Shown here piece by piece: positions 4,494 through 21,114 of a DNA stretch of 21,114 nt (position 1 is its first letter; every line of letters starts with the position of its first letter). Where the stretch lies: assembly GCA_964530955.1 (NCBI GenBank), contig CAZHCL010000014.1:1-21114 (forward strand). The letters run 5' to 3'. The stretch is from Candidatus Woesearchaeota archaeon. GTDB lineage: Archaea; Nanobdellota; Nanobdellia; Pacearchaeales; GW2011-AR1. The notes beneath the pieces were generated by a model. That model had not been told where the DNA came from and did not search any database. It saw only the letters and a list, made by a program, of their open reading frames with translations. Both the position numbers and the translations under genes were made by a program.

Positions 4494-5537
4494 ATGATAG
4501 AACTAGTTAAGCCCGAATTTGTTAAAGGAGATGAGAAAAGATTCAATAAGTTTGTATCTGAATTAAAAAGCAGCGATAAAATAGCCCTAATAAGCCATGA
4601 AAGCGATCCTGACGGTATCATAAGCGCTAAAATAGTAAATGCTGCTGTAAAAACCAGCTTTATCAAATTTATAGGCTACACTGACGCAAACATAGAGCTA
4701 GTTAAAGAAGTAAAAAAATCAGGAGCAAATAAAGTAATAATCACTGATTTATACATAAAAGACAGAAACTTCCTTGATAAATTAGCTGAATTTTCAGAAA
4801 TCCTTATAATAGACCACCACTTATTTGAAAATGATTGGAATTCGGATAAAATAATTTTTATGAACGCCCAGGAATTCTGTGCAGCCTATTTGACCTACTA
4901 TTTATTTAGAAAAACAAAAGACATTGAAAAATACGACTGGCTTGTAGCCTGCGCTTCAGTAAGTGACTGGCAATATACAAAAAATGCAAGATGGATGGAA
5001 GATGTATATGAAAAATATAAGGAGAAATTCAGTCCAACAATAGAAGGAATAAAGAAAAGCAAGTTTTTTGAGATAGTTGATAAAATAAGTCTTGGAATAA
5101 TCTATCATAAAAAAGAAGTTAAGATAATATACGAGCAAATAGGAGAAAAATTTGGAGACATAGGAAATATTGAAAAACATTCAGCAGAAGTGAGAGATGA
5201 AATAAATAAATTGCTTATCGATTTCGAAAAAAATAAAATAAATATTAAAGATGGCTTCTTCTATGAAATAGAAAGCAGATTACCTCTAAGTTCCTATTTA
5301 TGCACGACAATCAGCTCAAAAATTCAGAATAAAACAATAATTATTTCTCAAAAAGAAAATGATATATACAAAATGTCAGCAAGAAGACAAGATAAAAAAG
5401 AAAGTATGGACTCTTTTCTTAGAGAATTAGTTTCAGGATTAGAAAATAGCAAGGCAGGAGGCCATACGGCTGCTGCCGGAGCGAGTTTTATGTTGAAAGA
5501 TTTGGAAGAATTTAAAAAAAGAATCAAAAATCTATGA
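4494..5537 (+). CDS. DHH/DHHA1 phosphoesterase (RecJ/NrnA-like)
   Basis: SHESDPDGIIS, IITDL, IIDHH, SVSD, MSARR, GGHTAAAG. Confidence 0.9.
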   Translation: MIELVKPEFVKGDEKRFNKFVSELKSSDKIALISHESDPDGIISAKIVNAAVKTSFIKFIGYTDANIELVKEVKKSGANKVIITDLYIKDRNFLDKLAEFSEILIIDHHLFENDWNSDKIIFMNAQEFCAAYLTYYLFRKTKDIEKYDWLVACASVSDWQYTKNARWMEDVYEKYKEKFSPTIEGIKKSKFFEIVDKISLGIIYHKKEVKIIYEQIGEKFGDIGNIEKHSAEVRDEINKLLIDFEKNKINIKDGFFYEIESRLPLSSYLCTTISSKIQNKTIIISQKENDIYKMSARRQDKKESMDSFLRELVSGLENSKAGGHTAAAGASFMLKDLEEFKKRIKNL

Positions 5538-12593: not shown

Positions 12594-12614
12594 TAATAAT
12601 CATAAAAATATCTT

Positions 12615-12977
12615 ATGGTAAATGTAACAGAAGACCAAGTTTATGATGCTCTTACATATGAATGGCAATCTGGAGGAAAGATAAGGAATGATTTAATTGA
12701 AAAACTCGGACTTAATAAACTAACTCCTGTGAAGAAGGCAGCATATCTTTTAGCATTTCAAAGTTGGACTGTTAGTAAAGCCGATTTTTACCAAAGAATT
12801 GAAGATTTAAAAGAAAGAGGATTAGCTGAAATTGATTACAGAAAAGAGCTTGAAGGAGAAAATCTTATACAAGTAAACTATGTGAGGAAAAAGAGAGGCG
12901 GAGTTAGAGAAAAAGGGGCTGGAGAAATCCCAGAATTATCTATTGAAACAGGTTTATCAGGACTATTGAGCACATAA
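12615..12977 (+). CDS. Hypothetical protein, probable winged helix
   Basis: DQVYDAL…SGGKIRNDL…FYQRIEDLKERGLAEI pattern. Confidence 0.7.
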   Translation: MVNVTEDQVYDALTYEWQSGGKIRNDLIEKLGLNKLTPVKKAAYLLAFQSWTVSKADFYQRIEDLKERGLAEIDYRKELEGENLIQVNYVRKKRGGVREKGAGEIPELSIETGLSGLLST

Positions 12978-13025: not shown

Positions 13026-13096
13026 GGCCCATTAGGCTAATGGTAGACCGGGTCGTTTACACCGACCATGCCGAGGTTCGATCCCTCGATGGGCCA
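13026..13096 (+). tRNA. tRNA-Val(TAC), CCA not encoded
   Basis: Acceptor GGCCCAT/ATGGGCC + A; anticodon arm GGTCG-TTTACAC-CGACC; T arm CGAGG-TTCGATC-CCTCG. Confidence 0.93.
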
Positions 13097-13192
13097 TTCT
13101 CATCATCATATACAAATCATTAAAATAAAAATATTTCCTTTATGTAATCTATAATAATTATGTTTATATATCGATAATAACCGCAATTATAA

Positions 13193-14038: not shown

Positions 14039-14109
14039 GGCCTTGTAGTCTAATGGTAGAACATCTCGTTCACGTCGAGAGAGCCCAAGTCCGATTCTTG
14101 GCAGGGCCA
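14039..14109 (+). tRNA. tRNA-Val(CAC), CCA not encoded; integration target
   Basis: Acceptor GGCCTTG/CAGGGCC + A; anticodon arm TCTCG-TTCACGT-CGAGA; T arm CCAAG-TCCGATT-CTTGG. Confidence 0.93.
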
Positions 14110-14118
14110 TTTACATCA
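14104..14118 (+). repeat. Candidate 15-bp target-site duplication (left copy)
   Basis: GGGCCATTTACATCA = last 6 nt of the tRNA plus 9 nt of trailer, directly before GGGG. The partner copy is not in the window. Confidence 0.5.
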
Positions 14119-14145
14119 GGGGTATATTACATCTCCCGAATTCCG
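14119..14145 (+). repeat. Candidate casposon terminal inverted repeat (left end)
   Basis: GGGGTATATTACATCTCCCGAATTCCG resembles my recollection of the Aciduliprofundum boonei casposon end (GGGGATATATATACATCCCC…). The partner is not in the window. Confidence 0.6.
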
Positions 14146-14277
14146 AACCCTATATAGCATAGTTCTATAGAAAAGATATAGGAAAAGTATAGATATTAGA
14201 GTAAAATTTAATTTATTGTATGGTTTAATACAGCTATGACTTTATATAGGTCTTTATAATCAAGTAGGTATTAACAG

Positions 14278-14658
14278 ATGACAAAGTTAAAAGAGAATGT
14301 AAACAAATTGAACGCATTACTTAAAGAAGGTAAAATTACCGAAGCCTTTCAAAAGTATTACAATATTGATGTAAATATACATATTGATGGAAAACCGCCT
14401 ATAACTGGAAAAGAACAAAAGAGGGAAATGATATTTCTTCAAGAAATAGAAAAATTAAACTCTGCTGAGATAAAATTAGTTGCTTTTGGAGGAGTTGATG
14501 ATGATTTTTCAGTAACAGAATGGGAAATAAATATTGAAAATAAAAAAGGAGAAAAGAAAACAATTTATCGTGTAAATGTTCAACATTGGAAAGATGATAA
14601 AATTATTGATGAAAAAATATATTTTTGTGGTGACCAAAAATTTAAAGTAGAAGATTAA
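14278..14658 (+). CDS. SnoaL-like / NTF2-family protein (cargo)
   Basis: GKITEAFQKYY…DV…P.ITGK…SVTEW…QHWKDDKIIDEKIYF. Confidence 0.8.
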   Translation: MTKLKENVNKLNALLKEGKITEAFQKYYNIDVNIHIDGKPPITGKEQKREMIFLQEIEKLNSAEIKLVAFGGVDDDFSVTEWEINIENKKGEKKTIYRVNVQHWKDDKIIDEKIYFCGDQKFKVED

Positions 14659-14663
14659 TAAGT

Positions 14664-15839
14664 CTATTTCCAATAAATCCAATCGCTATAAGATTCGCCT
14701 GATATAACATTATCTCCATAAGCTCTCACATAAATTCTAAACTGCTGTCCAGTTGGCGAGTGTAGATTAGTTACTGTATATTGATAAGCTCCTTCTGGGT
14801 CTATCTCTAAAGAGTCACTTGTTACATCACTCCAAACTTTAGTTTGGTCTACGGTTTGTAAAGCAACATATATTTTAGTATTCTTTGCCGTTTCAGAGCC
14901 TAAGTTTTTCACAGTAACATTTACATTAGTATACACATCTCGATAGTTGTAAGCATAATTTGAGATAAAATGAATTTCAAGAGATGGTTTTTCAACAATA
15001 GGAAGGATAATCGCTTGTGAATTTTTAAATTCGTCAGGTATTTGTCCAACATCCCAACCTTTAGATGTAGTTTCTAAATAACAAAAGTCCATTCCACCAT
15101 ATGCATAATAGGATTGTCCAGCCGAAGGTGTACATTTTATTCCAACAGCCATGTGACCTACTGGATTTCCTTTAAATTCTAACATAGCTACACCATAGCC
15201 TAACTCATTAAGCATAGAAGATACTAGAATCGAAGTGTCTTCACAATCTCCGCCATCATCATAAATAGTTTCATAAGGGAATCTAGGATATTCATCAAAA
15301 CCAGTTGTGACTTTATCGGAAGTATATGGGAGACTTTGAACAAAAGAAATAATAAAATAGGGTATTTCTGAATCACTCAATCCGCTATTTTTACCGTAAT
15401 CTCTCAAATTTTCAGTAATACTTTTGATAAATGGTTTACTATAAATATCTGAGGCAAATAAATCATAATCTCTAACTCTTTCTCTAGCTTTGAAAACCTT
15501 ATCAACTTCGGGATATAATGTAATGGTTGTCTCATAACTATAACCTTTGTAATCCCATTTAAAGTCTCTAGTAAAAGCTCCTTTTTGATAATCAGATAAT
15601 GTATTGCTCTGACTTTGAATTGTTTGAGAAGTATTTGTTTGGTCATTTTGAGAGGGCGTTTGTAGATAGGTTTGACCTTGAGAAGAAGTTGGTGCTGGAT
15701 TATTAGCCGAAGTACTACTTGAGTTATTGGTAGAAGAATTATCTCCAAAGAAGTATCCAATCAGAACTAAAGCAATGAAAATCCAAAAGATAATCCAAAG
15801 CGTTCTCTTCCACACACTCTTTTTGGGTTTTGAATCCAT
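14664..15839 (-). CDS. Membrane-anchored transglutaminase-like cysteine protease with C-terminal Ig/CARDB-like domain (cargo)
   Basis: Likely start MDSKPKK at 15839 (ORF track extends to a TTG at 15887). TM helix; S/T/Q linker; FVQSLPY, GDCEDTSIL (Cys), GHMAVGI (His), YLETT; VNVTVKNLGS. Confidence 0.85.
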   Translation of the reverse strand: MDSKPKKSVWKRTLWIIFWIFIALVLIGYFFGDNSSTNNSSSTSANNPAPTSSQGQTYLQTPSQNDQTNTSQTIQSQSNTLSDYQKGAFTRDFKWDYKGYSYETTITLYPEVDKVFKARERVRDYDLFASDIYSKPFIKSITENLRDYGKNSGLSDSEIPYFIISFVQSLPYTSDKVTTGFDEYPRFPYETIYDDGGDCEDTSILVSSMLNELGYGVAMLEFKGNPVGHMAVGIKCTPSAGQSYYAYGGMDFCYLETTSKGWDVGQIPDEFKNSQAIILPIVEKPSLEIHFISNYAYNYRDVYTNVNVTVKNLGSETAKNTKIYVALQTVDQTKVWSDVTSDSLEIDPEGAYQYTVTNLHSPTGQQFRIYVRAYGDNVISGESYSDWIYWK

Positions 15840-15883
15840 AAAAGATATTGGTTTAACTAACTTAAAAACATATTGAATAATAC

Positions 15884-18520
15884 TCAATTCAATAATTTCT
15901 TTACTGCTTTAGTCTTCCAATTAAAATTAATAGGGTCTTTTCTTAATCGGTCTTTCATTTCCCATAAAGTAGACTTAGATACTTTGTGTCCTCTAGCTTC
16001 CTTAAAGGATATTTTCATTATCTTCTCAATCTTTTCCTTTTCAGATTTATATTCTAATGGTTTATCAAGCAATAAAGGTAATTGTTCTAAATTCTTTATT
16101 TCTTTTCCGATAAAGATTAATTCTGCTTCATTTACATGTCTTCTTTCAAGCTTACCGCTTTGAGTGCCATTAACAAATTTAGATTCGGGATGATTTGCAT
16201 ATTCTAAAATTGTATCTGCTAAGCTTTTCCAATATTCTAAACCTTTAAGGGTCTTTCCAGATTTGTAATCAATAAACTTTTCATAAACAGCAGATTGAGG
16301 ATTACTAGAATATGGAGCAATAGGCTTAACATTTCTATGATTCTTTTGACCAACTAGAAAGAAATTGAAAGGCTTAATCTGTTTTGATAATGGTTTATCC
16401 CTATTAAATTCCTTAAATCTTTTATAAATTGAAGGTGTCGAGACTGCAATCTTAGACATCGAATACAAAGAGGAGTATTTGTTTATGATATCTTCTTGAG
16501 TTATTATTTTATAATGTAATTTTAATATGTCTTCCCATATTTCTTTATGCCATTTCTCCCCATCCTTAAACTGTTTATCGAAGGGGTTTAGCAAATAGCC
16601 TAATCCATGAAGCTTAAAGTTGTCTTTCTCTATGATTATCTTATCATTTTCTATTCGATAAAGTACATATCTCTTTGCACTGATTCCATAGAACAAATAT
16701 TTTTCTTTCTCAATCTTGAAAAAGTCCTCATTAAATTCATAGGGATTAAGGGGCTTAAAGAGGACTTTTAGCCCTTCTGCATATTCTGAGGGAGCGTAAC
16801 AAGCGTCAGTATCCATATAGACATGGCAAGTATTTCTATCTTGAAGATACTTTTCTGCCATCGCTAAAAGAAGCCTAGCTCCCGCAACTTGCATAACTGC
16901 AATTAGTGGATTAAAGAACTTGCCCTCTTCTTCTACTTTCTGTTTAGTGAAAAATTGCTCCTTGCTATAAACAGTCAAATCACTATCTTTCTGCATAGTT
17001 CTAAGTTCGATAAATATACCATATGTCAAAGAATTAGCTAGAATCTTTACCGCTCTCTGCTTTCCGTCAAGTCTACTATATTCTTCTAAGACCTTTTGAA
17101 TTTTATCTCTTAATTCCTTAAAAGAATGTCTTTTCTCAATTAATATTTTTATAAAATTCTGTTCTCTTGGGTCTACTTCAATACCTAAAATATTAGTTTT
17201 CTTTAATGTCTCTTGCTTTCCAACTGGAATAAATCCAATAGCTCTTTTTATCTTAGGAATCTTGCCAGTTAATAACAAAGAAGCGATAACATCAGGCAAA
17301 GCATAATAAAGAGACTTGCCATATTTCAAATAATTAATTCCTACATTATACACGTCTCCTTTAGCGAGATAATTAGACCTTATTGGTAGAATATCCTCAT
17401 CAGGCTCTAACTCAACTAAGATATTCATTAACTTCCAGACATCTTTATTTGTTAAGCTCTCTAAGGTAATTCTATTCAACAATTCGATAGTTTCTTTTGT
17501 CATATCTTTTTCTTGAATCTCTTTAGCGATTACATAATCCCATAGACCCATGTTTATCGTGAGCGAAGGATACATACTTAGAAAATCTAAAACAGAGACC
17601 TCAATAGGAGTTTTTCTTATCTTTGTCTCACATCTTCCACCAAAATAAGCAGACATTAGTTGCCCTTTGACTTTTGCATTAATCTTTGTGCTGATTTTAG
17701 ATAATGGTTGTATTCCCATTTGTCTTAATGCACATTTTCCTAGAGAAGCGCTAGAGTATATTTTATTGAGATTACCTTTAATTTGGAATTTATCAAAATG
17801 TTTTTCTATATTCTTATACAATTCATAAGTTGAGACTAAATCATTAAGATTGTAGTCAAGATATTCTTCATTAATAACTCCGTGTTCTTTAGCTTTCTTC
17901 TTTATAGTCTCACATTCAAAGAATTTACCAGCGCTTTCTAAACTAGCGTGTTTATCATCCATGAATATAACTGATGGAGTTCTCAAATCTAAGAAATGAC
18001 CTTTAAACCTCTTAGAGAATTGAATAAAACTAATAGCCGAATCTATGCTCTTTATTTTCAGTCTAGGGAGAAACTTATTTTGTGATAGTTGAATAGAAAA
18101 CCAATCTCCTTTATGTGTATGCCTACTATCACTAAAATGTATAGCTAATCTGCTCAAATCAAAGGGAAGATTAAAGCCAACACATAAAGATTTAGCTTCA
18201 AGCATTTCAGGATAAAAGATATCTTCAATGAATCTTTCAACATCAAAGAGCTGAATGTTATTTTTATCGCAATACTTCTTAATAATTTCTAATTCTTCTT
18301 TAGTAAGGTTATCTTTATGGTAAAAAATTCCCGTTAAATTCTTCTGTGAGTTCTGAACTATCATAAAAGAGCCAAACTTTAAGTTTTGATATTCATCACT
18401 TGTTGTTTCAGTGTCAAATATAAGCAATCGAGTAAATTCATTATTCACTTCTGTGCCTTCCCATTTAAGTTTTTTGTTAGTCTCTTCTGTATAAGCTCTA
18501 ATTGCTATCTTATTTCTCAT
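15884..18520 (-). CDS. polB: Family B DNA polymerase, protein-primed/casposon-type, with 3'-5' exonuclease
   Basis: ExoI IFDTETT, ExoII GFNLPFD, ExoIII YNLND, YFGGRCE, motif A DFLSMYPS, motif B KILANSLTYG, motif C YMDTD, KRY; C-terminal HTH-like KVSKSTLWEMK. Confidence 0.95.
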   Translation of the reverse strand: MRNKIAIRAYTEETNKKLKWEGTEVNNEFTRLLIFDTETTSDEYQNLKFGSFMIVQNSQKNLTGIFYHKDNLTKEELEIIKKYCDKNNIQLFDVERFIEDIFYPEMLEAKSLCVGFNLPFDLSRLAIHFSDSRHTHKGDWFSIQLSQNKFLPRLKIKSIDSAISFIQFSKRFKGHFLDLRTPSVIFMDDKHASLESAGKFFECETIKKKAKEHGVINEEYLDYNLNDLVSTYELYKNIEKHFDKFQIKGNLNKIYSSASLGKCALRQMGIQPLSKISTKINAKVKGQLMSAYFGGRCETKIRKTPIEVSVLDFLSMYPSLTINMGLWDYVIAKEIQEKDMTKETIELLNRITLESLTNKDVWKLMNILVELEPDEDILPIRSNYLAKGDVYNVGINYLKYGKSLYYALPDVIASLLLTGKIPKIKRAIGFIPVGKQETLKKTNILGIEVDPREQNFIKILIEKRHSFKELRDKIQKVLEEYSRLDGKQRAVKILANSLTYGIFIELRTMQKDSDLTVYSKEQFFTKQKVEEEGKFFNPLIAVMQVAGARLLLAMAEKYLQDRNTCHVYMDTDACYAPSEYAEGLKVLFKPLNPYEFNEDFFKIEKEKYLFYGISAKRYVLYRIENDKIIIEKDNFKLHGLGYLLNPFDKQFKDGEKWHKEIWEDILKLHYKIITQEDIINKYSSLYSMSKIAVSTPSIYKRFKEFNRDKPLSKQIKPFNFFLVGQKNHRNVKPIAPYSSNPQSAVYEKFIDYKSGKTLKGLEYWKSLADTILEYANHPESKFVNGTQSGKLERRHVNEAELIFIGKEIKNLEQLPLLLDKPLEYKSEKEKIEKIMKISFKEARGHKVSKSTLWEMKDRLRKDPINFNWKTKAVKKLLN

Positions 18521-18833
18521 TGTTTAACTCATTAATCTTTTTTTCTCTTAGTTCACGTAAACATTCTATACCTAACTCAAAAAATCCAATAGAGCTAGTT
18601 ATAGCCATAATCTCTTTATCTTTTCTCAATTCAACTGGAAGAGAATCTTGAAAACAGCTAATAAAATCATGAAATTCTTTAAGTAGAGGTATTTGCTGTT
18701 CTGAGTTTATTCTTCCATGTACATGATGGCTTTCTATTTTCTGATTAGGCGCTTTCAAATTAACCTTATCCATCTTTCCCTTCTCTATTCTCTTTCTTCT
18801 ATTCCCTAAATATCTGGTTAAATCTTCATTCAT
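18510..18833 (-). CDS. HNH-like protein lacking Zn-finger cysteines
   Basis: Probable start MNEDL (ATG 18833) with SD GAGGTG; ESHHVHGRINSEQQIPLLKEFH; overlaps both neighbours. Confidence 0.7.
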   Translation of the reverse strand: MNEDLTRYLGNRRKRIEKGKMDKVNLKAPNQKIESHHVHGRINSEQQIPLLKEFHDFISCFQDSLPVELRKDKEIMAITSSIGFFELGIECLRELREKKINELNNEK

Positions 18834-19470
18834 CGGAATACACCTCATAGACTTCTGAATCTTCTTTTGATTCTTCAATATCTCGAACATTCTCAGGATT
18901 AGTTTCTAATCTGTGCCTCTTTCTGTAAATATCAATTATTATTTTATCTTTGAATGGTGTAAGATAGCTAGAATCTCCAGTTAAAAGATAATTCTTAACT
19001 GCATTGTAATAAGACCCAATCAAAGAAGCATATTTTGATTTGTTTACTATGATTGTGATTATTCTACCTTTTTCATAAATCTGCAAAGCTCTTTGTATTG
19101 AATCTGTTTTATTTGCTATCCATCTGCCCGACCTCTTCCTTATTGCTTTTCCTAGATAAATTAAAGTCTCAGATTGAGCAAAACCTATTTCTTCACAAGC
19201 AGATGATAGAGATTCCCCTTTTCTCATCTGTCTTAATATCTCTAAAGCCAAAATTCTTTTATGCTTTTGCTTAGCAGTTAGTAAAGTCCATCTTTTCTTA
19301 GACAAATCTAAATCGCTTAATCTTTTTTCTCTTAAAACTTTAAGAGATTCATTAGGAAAATAATCGTGAAGCCTTGTTATTCTTTTATAATATCTTGAAT
19401 TATTATTAACGTGTGTCTTCCAATGATTGAAAGACGAGTGTCTTGCTGAAAATCTACCTCTTTTTTCCAT
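18826..19470 (-). CDS. Basic HTH-containing protein of casposon type
   Basis: LEILRQMRKGESLSSACEEIGFAQSETL HTH; RSGRWIA…DSIQR…ASLIGSYYNAVKNYLLTGD…LETNP. Alternative GTG start at 19476. Confidence 0.8.
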   Translation of the reverse strand: MEKRGRFSARHSSFNHWKTHVNNNSRYYKRITRLHDYFPNESLKVLREKRLSDLDLSKKRWTLLTAKQKHKRILALEILRQMRKGESLSSACEEIGFAQSETLIYLGKAIRKRSGRWIANKTDSIQRALQIYEKGRIITIIVNKSKYASLIGSYYNAVKNYLLTGDSSYLTPFKDKIIIDIYRKRHRLETNPENVRDIEESKEDSEVYEVYSDE

Positions 19471-19527
19471 AGACACAAGAAAATAAAAATAAATTGTGTT
19501 TCGCTACTAGATAGCTCATCAGTATGG

Positions 19528-19758
19528 TTAATCTTCTACTTGTGCAGTAGGCAACTCTTTCTGTTTTTCATCTGTAGCTAAGAGAATCGTATAAGCTGGA
19601 CTTTTATCATCAAGCTTCTCTCCTTTCTTCGCTTCAAAAGGCATAACTATCACTCTAACAGTTTGCCCCGCAATCAATTCAACCACGCCAGAAAAGAACT
19701 TTTTGTTATTTTTCTCTTTGCGCCACAATGCGCCAATCTTTTTTAAAGCCATTTTCAA
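19528..19758 (-). CDS. DUF736-like small protein (putative ssDNA-binding)
   Basis: KIGALW.K…KFFSG…K…DKSPAYTI pattern; SD-like GGGGGTG upstream; TTGA overlap with the RHH gene. Confidence 0.65.
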   Translation of the reverse strand: MKMALKKIGALWRKEKNNKKFFSGVVELIAGQTVRVIVMPFEAKKGEKLDDKSPAYTILLATDEKQKELPTAQVED

Positions 19759-19928
19759 CTTGCACCCCCTTTCATGTTATTGTCTTCTTGCAAGAAATCT
19801 TTCAAGTGCTCATACAGCGCTGTTCTGATTATCTCAGCCTGTGAACAACCTCTATGTTCTGATGCTTTCCTTAAAACCCTTCGTAGAGCCTCAGGAAGGC
19901 ACACCAATAGTTTACTTGTTTCTATCAT
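19755..19928 (-). CDS. Ribbon-helix-helix (CopG-like) protein, 57 aa, not in ORF track
   Basis: Hand translation: MIETSKLLVCLPEALRRVLRKASEHRGCSQAEIIRTALYEHLKDFLQEDNNMKGGAS*. Confidence 0.85.
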   Translation of the reverse strand: MIETSKLLVCLPEALRRVLRKASEHRGCSQAEIIRTALYEHLKDFLQEDNNMKGGAS

Positions 19929-19943
19929 GGTAAAACTAGGCTA

Positions 19944-19961
19944 CCTATATTCTTATATAGG
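19944..19961. promoter_or_regulatory. Palindromic operator in the divergent promoter region
   Basis: CCTATAT-TCTT-ATATAGG between the RHH gene (-) and the HTH-HEAT gene (+). Confidence 0.55.
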
Positions 19962-20008
19962 CTTAATATCTAATATGATATAGATAGTATATACAAGATG
20001 AGACTAAA

Positions 20009-20155
20009 ATGAGTGAAAATGATAACGAAGACGTTGATGAAGCGATATTAAAAGCCGTAGAGGTGAGACAATTCATCAGAAGGAAAGATTTGCTCAAATT
20101 ATTATTGAAAGAAGATGAAAAAACTAAGTCGAATACAAAGCACAAAAATGGTTAA
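20009..20155 (+). pseudogene. N-terminal fragment (helices 1-2) of a winged-helix protein, 48 aa
   Basis: Hand translation MSENDNEDVDEAILKAVEVRQFIRRKDLLKLLLKEDEKTKSNTKHKNG*; it would join naturally to ISKATLNRHISNL at 20533. Confidence 0.55.
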
Positions 20156-20532
20156 CTCATATTATTTAACATCACACAAGCACACACTAAAAAGCACAGC
20201 GCACAAAACGCTGAGAAAGCACAACTAAAAGTGGTGAAATAGTGCTAAAACAGTACAAAAACGCTAAAATGACCATAAATAACCAAAATAACCCGCTAAA
20301 TACCACTAAATCCGACAAAAACAGCAGCGCTAAAAAGGGGAAAAAGGGGATTCAGGGGAAAAAATCAGCAAAAAATTACGCTAACGTAGCGCAAAGTCCC
20401 TTTATTTCACGTAAGCGTACGCATGAGCCCACGCTAGAGCGTACGCTACCAGCGCAGACGCCTATTTTTCCACAGCAGAGCACGGCGGAAATGGCGGATT
20501 TGTGGGCGGAAGAGGACATAAAAAAGCTGGAT
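20153..20532. other. Compositionally anomalous ~380-bp segment interrupting the HTH-HEAT gene
   Basis: A/C-rich with ~10-bp phased A-tracts, then G4 runs, then a GC-rich CGCT/AGCG palindrome array. Boundaries are approximate. Confidence 0.55.
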
Positions 20533-21114
20533 ATATCTAAAGCAACACTGAATAGGCACATTTCTAACTTAATAGGGCTGAAAAAACTTATTACAATTAA
20601 GTCAGAAGATTTTAGAAAGTTTGGATTGACAGAAACAGACAAAAAAGCCCGTTTTCTAACACTAGCTAGAAATGATTCTCTTCCAAAATACTACAATTTA
20701 GTTCTATCTTCATTAAAGAGCGAAGACCCAACTATGAAGAAAAACGCCCTTATTGAACTTGAATCAATGAACTCTATTAGTCTGTTGCCTAGCCAACTAA
20801 CCAATTTAGTCTCAAAGTTATTAAAAGAAAGCTATGAGATAAGTGAAAGAATAATCAGAGTAATTTATAACAATTTTCAGAAAGGAATTGTACCATCAAA
20901 CTTAAACAAACTTCAAAATAATTTAATCTTGTTCTACGAAAAGAATAAAGAAAAGACAAATCAAAACACTAAAACTTCAATAATGTTCATGCTAGGAGTG
21001 CTAGGCAATAAGAAAATAATTAAGTTTCTCAAAGAAGATATAATCAAAAATAAAACTTATAATGACTTGCAACTGGAAGGTTATATTAGTTGGTTTGTTG
21101 CTAAAGTAATTGAT
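20242..21114 (+). CDS. HTH recognition helix + HEAT-like repeat protein (casposon HTH-HEAT type), runs off the window, not in ORF track
   Basis: Frame open from 20215 to the end. Candidate starts: GTG 20242 (SD GGTGA at 20233), ATG 20269, ATG 20491. ISKATLNRHISNLIGLKKL…LSSLKSEDPTMKKNALIEL. Confidence 0.75.
   Translation, partial: MLKQYKNAKMTINNQNNPLNTTKSDKNSSAKKGKKGIQGKKSAKNYANVAQSPFISRKRTHEPTLERTLPAQTPIFPQQSTAEMADLWAEEDIKKLDISKATLNRHISNLIGLKKLITIKSEDFRKFGLTETDKKARFLTLARNDSLPKYYNLVLSSLKSEDPTMKKNALIELESMNSISLLPSQLTNLVSKLLKESYEISERIIRVIYNNFQKGIVPSNLNKLQNNLILFYEKNKEKTNQNTKTSIMFMLGVLGNKKIIKFLKEDIIKNKTYNDLQLEGYISWFVAKVID

Follow-up and report, generated by a model that had tools for sequence, protein, structure and literature searches.

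What begins immediately after the tRNA-Val(CAC) gene in the 21,114-nt stretch of DNA analysed here (the window), and where does it end? An earlier note, made from the letters alone, had taken positions 14104-14145 for the left junction of a casposon and expected the far end to show the terminus again in inverted form, next to a repeat of the target. Casposons are self-copying transposons moved by a Cas1-type enzyme, and the CRISPR adaptation machinery is proposed to descend from them. [quoted passage not shown]

The acceptor 3′ strand of tRNA-Val(CAC), CAGGGCC, lies at 14102-14108 and is followed by the discriminator A at 14109; no encoded CCA is present at the 3′ end of the gene, according to ARAGORN and the sequence. 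The T-stem, loop and stem occupy 14085-14101, and the T-loop TCCGATT is found at 14090-14096, that is, at positions -16 to -10. The discriminator is followed by TTTACATCA (14110-14118) and then by GGGGTATATTACATCTCCCG (14119-14138), exactly as stated earlier. With up to 3 mismatches allowed, this 20-mer has a single match in the window, and none of 100 shuffles gave one. The other valine tRNA gene of the window, tRNA-Val(TAC) (13026-13105), ends in ...GGGCCATTCTCATCA, agrees at 12 of 14 positions over the equivalent 14-mer region and is unoccupied. The two tRNA-Val genes are ~45 bp apart in the congener G007, so their 3′ likeness may simply reflect a tRNA gene duplication.

The window is the entire contig C14 of a 761-kb, 26-contig MAG that is 82.7% complete. 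No inverted copy of the terminus and no second copy of the trailer were found downstream within the window, because the window ends inside the element. The far end had been expected on the same contig; a genome search placed it instead on contig C20 (5,382 bp), where the inverted copy occupies 4495-4513 of the opposite strand and, in the register first proposed, differs at 1 position. The terminus occurs nowhere else in the genome. On C20 the right end reads ...CGGGAGATGTAATATACCC / GCCATTTACATCAG / AATAAATCC or, in a longer reading of the plus strand, ...TTCGGAATTCGGGAGATGTAATATACCC / GCCATTTACATCAG / AATAAATCCGAGC.... When the two arms are aligned inward from 14120 and C20:4512, 50 of 51 positions match; the left repeat is thus 51 nt long with 1 mismatch, and a weaker match runs on to ~14178 (~59 nt). 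The right copy of GCCATTTACATCAG, at C20:4513-4526, directly abuts the right arm. The arm match and the abutting 14-mer together are far beyond chance.

The exact register is given by an unoccupied site. In a scan of public metagenome contigs, the sole match for the tRNA end and trailer was contig L126 (1,521 bp), whose reverse strand is 100% identical to C14:13994-14119 (126 nt) and to C20:4513-5382 (870 nt). The two flank matches overlap by exactly GCCATTTACATCAG, which is present once. L126 is the unoccupied site, the element extends from C14:14120 through C20:4512, and the duplicated target measures 14 bp, comprising three acceptor bases (GCC), the discriminator A and 10 trailer bases. The insertion is polymorphic among essentially identical genomes; since the empty-site allele is 100% identical across both flanks (126 + 870 nt), the gain or loss of the element must be very recent. 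The casposase and the empty site were encountered in source metagenomes such as JGI Ga0265337 and Ga0265338. An empty site was also sought through contigs with a 96-97% identical FtsZ, none of which extended to tRNA-Val(CAC). A 15-16-bp duplication and a repeat starting with GGGG were considered as well and rejected, since either would bring in a mismatch and the empty site agrees exactly with 14 bp. The predicted inverted copy is therefore present as ...CGGGAGATGTAATATACCC, with 19 of the 20 predicted bases, in a register shifted by one base, and the repeat starts with GGG and not GGGG. Likewise, the last tRNA bases and the trailer are duplicated as foreseen, but the L126 contig shows that the duplicated unit is the 14-bp GCCATTTACATCAG and not (G)GGCCATTTACATCA.

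[quoted passage not shown] The junction sequences already refute this reading, whose probability we consider negligible. A long att repeat of a tRNA half, which the earlier note had set down as evidence against its own proposal, is absent: the repeat is only 14 bp with 4 tRNA bases, and 51-bp inverted repeats abut it. Furthermore, no tyrosine or serine recombinase (integrase) domain was found among the element ORFs scanned, and a full-length casposase is present.

An assembly or binning artefact, in which C20 would come from another organism or another copy and the two ends would not bound one element, is very improbable. The MAG is in 26 contigs, the ends lie on different contigs without sequence overlap, and the GC content of C20 is 0.313 versus ~0.345, all of which could point in that direction. 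Against it, L126 joins the C14 and C20 flanks at 100% identity with a single 14-mer, and the genome has no terminus copies other than the two. The HTH-HEAT-like gene also continues in frame over the break: residues 42-291 of its window part correspond to residues 2-252 of the 313-aa homologue in casposon L113, and residues 1-58 on C20 correspond to residues 255-312, leaving ~2 codons missing at the break. We estimate that ~6 nt are unsequenced between C14 and C20, whose ends have no exact overlap, and the remainder of the casposon is C20:1-4512 (4,512 bp). The synteny of the flanks in G007 argues against an artefact as well. That genome carries tRNA-Gly, tRNA-Val(TAC) and tRNA-Val(CAC), then ~310 bp, and then a homologue of the Zn-ribbon gene on C20 (83% amino-acid identity), with no element between tRNA-Val(CAC) and this homologue. 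An additional ORF of ~265 nt lies between the tRNA and the Zn-ribbon gene in G007. In a comparison of prefoldin-gene synteny across 30 relatives, tRNA-Val never adjoined. Reading the locus as one casposon links two contigs of the MAG, which is useful for annotation. The features of the element and its flanks are collected in Table 1.

Table 1 Features of the casposon and its flanks. Positions refer to the window (contig C14) unless C20 is named.
Feature	Position	Strand	Basis
tRNA-Val(CAC), integration target	14039..14109	+	ARAGORN and sequence
14-bp target duplication, left copy, GCCATTTACATCAG	14106..14119	+	Identical 14-mer at right end; single copy in empty site
Left terminal inverted repeat, GGGTATATTACATCTCCCGAATTCC...	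14120..14170	+	Arm-to-arm alignment with C20:4462-4512
Casposon, left part, 6,995 bp	14120..21114	.	Runs to contig end
126-aa cargo ORF	14278..14658	+	ORF list
407-aa cargo gene	14664..15887	-	55% identical to gene in Nanoarchaeota casposon L009
Divergent family B DNA polymerase (PolB), 878 aa	15884..18520	-	Motifs and profile search
126-aa core gene, position of family 2 HNH gene	18510..18890	-	Homologues in related loci
216-aa core gene, position of family 2 HTH gene	18826..19476	-	Homologues in related loci
Two overlapping small genes, 76 aa and 57 aa, head of polymerase operon	19528..19928	-	Homologues
48-aa ORF and HTH-HEAT-like gene, N-terminal ~250 residues	20009..21114	+	L113 arrangement
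Cas1 casposase, 403 aa	C20:174-1385		PF01867 Cas_Cas1, E 5e-62
50-aa CxxC...CxxC Zn-ribbon gene, convergent on tRNA	C20:4523-4675	-	Right flank

The C20 casposase is the sole Cas1 match in the genome, and no other cas domain was found among the element ORFs scanned. Residues 1-393 of the protein align with the M. mazei casposase 6OPM (E 5.4e-147), C-terminal extension included. Residues E162, H231 and E246 do not vary among 28 aligned sequences and correspond to the triad E162/H232/E247 of the M. mazei casposase (PMC6977970). The polymerase has intact motifs, namely the exonuclease motif FDTET (residues 35-39) and motif C, YMDTDA (DTD at 570-572). Searched as a single sequence, it reached Pfam DNA_pol_B at E 6e-4, below the cut-off, had a likewise sub-threshold PHROG polymerase match and had no match in the PDB. 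A profile built from 12 casposon orthologues matches archaeal PolB structures (P. abyssi 4fm2, E 1.2e-7), and the protein is 37-60% identical to the gene at the same position in 16 related casposon loci. Weak matches of this kind are expected, because the A. boonei casposon polymerase belongs to a separate, divergent PolB cluster (PMC7544198).

In 10 related loci, a homologue of the 126-aa core gene (30-62% identity) immediately precedes PolB, and homologues of the 216-aa core gene occupy the same position in 15 (33-57% identity). Neither of these proteins nor the HTH-HEAT-like protein has a Pfam or PHROG domain match, so the family 2 names HNH, HTH and HTH-HEAT are taken from the literature by position only. 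The overlapping 76-aa and 57-aa genes, which keep their position in relatives and likewise lack domain matches, are probably co-translated; the former protein is 88% identical to its L113 counterpart, and the latter has homologues in L005, L008, L040 and L041. The 48-aa ORF (20009-20155) precedes the HTH-HEAT-like ORF (20242-21114), which continues over C20:1-177 and overlaps the start of the casposase gene. L113 has the same arrangement, with ORFs of 54 aa and 313 aa followed by Cas1, and its small ORF shares 56% identity with ours over 34 aa. Judged by this comparison, the pair is a conserved two-gene arrangement and did not arise by a recent split. The HTH-HEAT-like gene probably starts in reality around codon 41 of the ORF as listed, since the homology to L113 begins at residue 42. 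Among the cargo genes, the 407-aa protein gave sub-threshold hints of transglutaminase-like and CARDB domains and a superinfection-exclusion-like PHROG (5e-6), and the 126-aa cargo ORF had neither a Pfam or PHROG match nor a homologue in the related casposons compared. The other cargo genes encode a membrane protein, a TPR protein and products of 94 aa and 278 aa. Most of the small and cargo ORFs have no PHROG or Pfam match.

The locus combines a Cas1 with an intact triad, an internal PolB, terminal inverted repeats and a perfect 14-bp duplication, the hallmarks of the casposon superfamily. Family 2 casposases carry a C-terminal extension of ~60-70 residues (HTH) that is absent from family 1. 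This extension is found here, together with a duplication over the tRNA end and a T-arm upstream of it. In our survey of related loci, the casposase is 52-63% identical to those of Methanosarcinales and DPANN casposons and 37-39% identical to those of Nitrosopumilus and Nitrosotalea, most of which align only to ~residue 381. The placement in family 2 comes from alignment and identity. We regard the element as a bona fide family 2 casposon, probably recently mobile. The host assignment to a DPANN archaeon (Nanoarchaeota/Pacearchaeota-like) follows from three observations: the FtsZ encoded in the window is 87-96% identical to proteins labelled Nanoarchaeota or Candidatus Pacearchaeota archaeon, the genomes of the host genus and order measure 0.5-1.2 Mb, and the nearest casposases in the one-genome-per-species survey (61-63%) are from Woesearchaeota and Nanoarchaeota MAGs. 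We note that one 91% identical FtsZ (P0151) has the source label Candidatus Liptonbacteria bacterium and probably comes from a mis-binned archaeal contig. No paper describing DPANN casposons was found in the literature searched. The present locus adds a complete, apparently intact DPANN casposon with a base-exact natural pair of sites before and after insertion.

To our knowledge, biochemical studies exist for only two family 2 casposases. By homology with the A. boonei and M. mazei enzymes, the casposase, probably a tetramer as in 6OPM, would bind the T-arm and acceptor DNA of the tRNA-Val gene as a 'leader'. Two 3′-OH element ends (...ACCC-3′) would then attack strands 14 bp apart, the first site being 3 bases before the discriminator, and gap repair would duplicate GCCATTTACATCAG. 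The left copy would keep the tRNA intact, and the right copy would keep the stop codon of the convergent Zn-ribbon gene (C20:4523-4525, inside the 14-bp target). Both tRNA-Val(CAC) and the Zn-ribbon gene are intact because the 14-bp duplication gives each of them one copy. From its family membership, the element is assumed to replicate with its own PolB.

The earlier note gave GGGGATATATATACATCCCC as the A. boonei terminus, and this is letter-exact: it equals the first 20 nt of oligonucleotide LE26r, GGGGATATATATACATCCCCTCTTAA (PMC6614799 Suppl. Table 1). It had also given the A. boonei duplication as ~15 bp over the last tRNA bases and the trailer. The mutagenesis numbering gives 14 bp, consisting of CCC-A and 10 trailer bases, with the T-loop at -16 to -10 (PMC6614799). 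The A. boonei tRNA-Pro gene reads T-15 C A A A T C C G G G C G G C-1 / C+1 C C A+4 (PMC6614799). Like the present element, AciBoo-C1 (PMC5137440, PMC6614799) has inserted at the 3′ end of a tRNA gene whose T-loop occupies -16 to -10, with a 14-15-bp duplication starting 3 nt before the discriminator, a terminus composed of a G-run, alternating A/T, TACATC and a C-run, and a 3′-terminal CCC. It differs in its target, tRNA-Pro instead of tRNA-Val, and in the length of the inverted repeat (37 bp versus 51 bp). The comparison with AciBoo-C1 covers the ends and the target site. Our terminal 26-mer scores better against LE26r than all but 6 of 20,000 shuffles, or all but 134 of 20,000 when GGG is held fixed.

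In A. boonei, a 3′-terminal TCCCC suffices and C-3 is essential; in the target, C is needed at +1 and +2, and a TCAAATC T-loop motif was mapped (PMC5137440, PMC6614799). The A. boonei element ends in CCCC-3′, and an oligonucleotide with C-4 changed to A (LE10C7A) is used poorly, whereas the present element naturally ends in ...TATACCC-3′ (as an oligonucleotide end, ...ATATACCC-3′ / ...TGTAATATACCC-3′). Furthermore, position +1 is G here and C there, and the T-loop is TCCGATT here and TCAAATC there, so target recognition cannot match that of A. boonei in detail.

The family 2 tRNA-Leu casposons of M. mazei (6OPM; PMC4779613, PMC6977970) resemble the present element in several respects. Their casposase aligns over residues 1-393, and the 14-bp duplication of 4 + 10 bp is equivalent to that of M. 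mazei, which consists of the last 4 bp of tRNA-Leu and 10 bp (PMC6977970). The inverted repeats start with GGG(A/T)..., and occupied and empty sites coexist in natural populations. PolB, the small core genes, the HTH-HEAT-like gene and Cas1 come in the same order, an order that is also found in Woesearchaeota and Nanoarchaeota casposons. On the other hand, the M. mazei host is a methanogen and ours is a DPANN archaeon with a genome below 1 Mb. The conserved tetranucleotide is CGCA there, as opposed to GCCA at tRNA-Val(CAC) here, and the tip of the repeat is GGGATATAGG... there and GGGTATAT... here. The cargo also differs, with a TPR protein, a membrane protein and the 407-aa protein in the present element.

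We surveyed one genome per species and obtained 75 loci with related casposases. Their ends were searched for in a sequence-agnostic way, using 9-nt exact inverted seeds and a 13-16-bp direct repeat with at most 1 mismatch. Convincing ends were obtained for 27 loci, or 28 elements with the present one, and 48 of the 75 loci gave no solution, mostly because contigs were broken off or the flank retrieved did not reach the ends. For L015 and L018, the solutions had 9-10-nt arms and 13-bp repeats containing a mismatch; they were judged spurious and excluded. The hosts in the survey include Woesearchaeota, Nanoarchaeota, Iainarchaeum, Aenigmatarchaeota and Micrarchaeota among DPANN archaea, as well as Methanosarcinales, Methanomicrobiales and Nitrosopumilus. 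The duplication is 14 bp in all 28 elements. All 56 ends begin with GGG followed by an A/T run; position 4 is A in 32, T in 20 and G in 4, and positions 5-8 are mostly T-A-T-A (~80-90%). In the 14 elements with an adjacent tRNA called by ARAGORN (Leu, Ser, Gln, Arg, Pro or Val), the T-arm falls in the same columns, with the T-loop at -16 to -10 as in A. boonei and M. mazei. T-16, C-14, A-12, T-10 and C-9 never vary in these elements, and 3 acceptor bases and the discriminator open the duplication.

The likeness of the terminus to that of A. boonei could have been a compositional accident of a G run, an AT run and a C run, without a conserved recognition motif. Most relatives' repeats do score low against A. 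boonei beyond GGG and the A/T run, and terminal inverted repeats are casposon-specific in sequence (PMC4779613). We nevertheless regard such an accident as quite unlikely, given that GGG was found at every end by a search that did not require it, that positions 5-8 are so often T-A-T-A, that few shuffles match LE26r as well as our 26-mer does, and that recognition in A. boonei was mapped to the 3′-terminal TCCCC. The comparison of ends supports a conserved core end motif, as had been proposed from the A. boonei likeness, in a refined form: only the 3′-CCC after the A/T run is universal, and a fourth C as in A. boonei is found in a minority.

Among the relatives, the uncharacterised casposons L005, L006, L009 and L113 from Woesearchaeota and Nanoarchaeota MAGs are most similar to the present element, with casposases 61-81% identical, tips identical over 17-30 nt, the same core gene order and 14-bp duplications at tRNA 3′ ends. 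The first 17 nt of our left repeat are those of the Woesearchaeota casposon L006. L113 is the closest relative with context (casposase 81% identical), and its right repeat is identical to ours for 30 nt. It is located at tRNA-Ser(GGA) with the duplication GGCGTTACTCTTCT, and L009 is located at tRNA-Ser(GCT); the duplications of L005, L006, L009 and L113 all start with GGCG, compared with GCCA at our tRNA-Val. The L113 and L009 comparison indicates that near-identical ends are compatible with different tRNA targets. The 14-bp stagger, the tRNA register and the GGG/CCC tip are fixed across the 28 elements while the tRNA target varies. The survey supports what was known from A. boonei and M. mazei and extends little beyond it.

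We tentatively suggest, as somewhat less than an even chance, that family 2 casposases follow one rule across archaea, with generic T-arm docking, two cuts 14 bp apart of which the first falls 3 nt before the discriminator, and joining through 3′-CCC, the choice of tRNA being set by only a few extra contacts. Two observations support this idea: an 81%-identical casposase with a 30-nt-identical tip uses tRNA-Ser and not tRNA-Val, and the existence of occupied and empty alleles with fully identical flanks suggests that casposons may be moving now in ultra-small DPANN genomes. If the idea is true, the two casposases would make a natural enzyme pair for mapping the determinants of target specificity.

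The element could also be a genuine casposon that is now a fixed, inactive relic, with the empty-site contig coming from a lineage that was never occupied. The casposons of M. burtonii have decayed (PMC4779613), and an empty allele shows polymorphism but neither its direction nor its age. On balance we consider a relic unlikely, because the inverted repeats differ at only 1 of 51 positions, the duplication is perfect, the casposase triad and PolB motifs are intact, and the empty allele matches the flanks without a single difference.

Several further observations were made on the surveyed loci. In L113, a DNA methylase and a SacI-like restriction nuclease lie directly after Cas1 (L113:10284-12415), at the position where the present element has the 94-aa ORF and the TPR protein, so that different cargo is swapped in at the same place. 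This closest related casposon has matching tRNA-Ser flanks in one sample (L113:12464-12477). In two other samples, L114 (127-140 / 12604-12617) and L115 (11955-11968), its right end abuts a different 14-mer, GGCGTCCAGTACTA, and the left end keeps AGAAGAGTAACGCC. These mismatched flanks could result from recombination between copies at different tRNA genes, from inversion or from co-assembly of variants. Lastly, the Methanosarcinales casposons L029, L031, L033, L034, L036 and L039 abut a T-arm-like sequence and CGCA where ARAGORN calls no tRNA; such flanks could represent pseudo-targets or 3′ fragments of tRNA genes, which serial or tandem insertion may have left behind.
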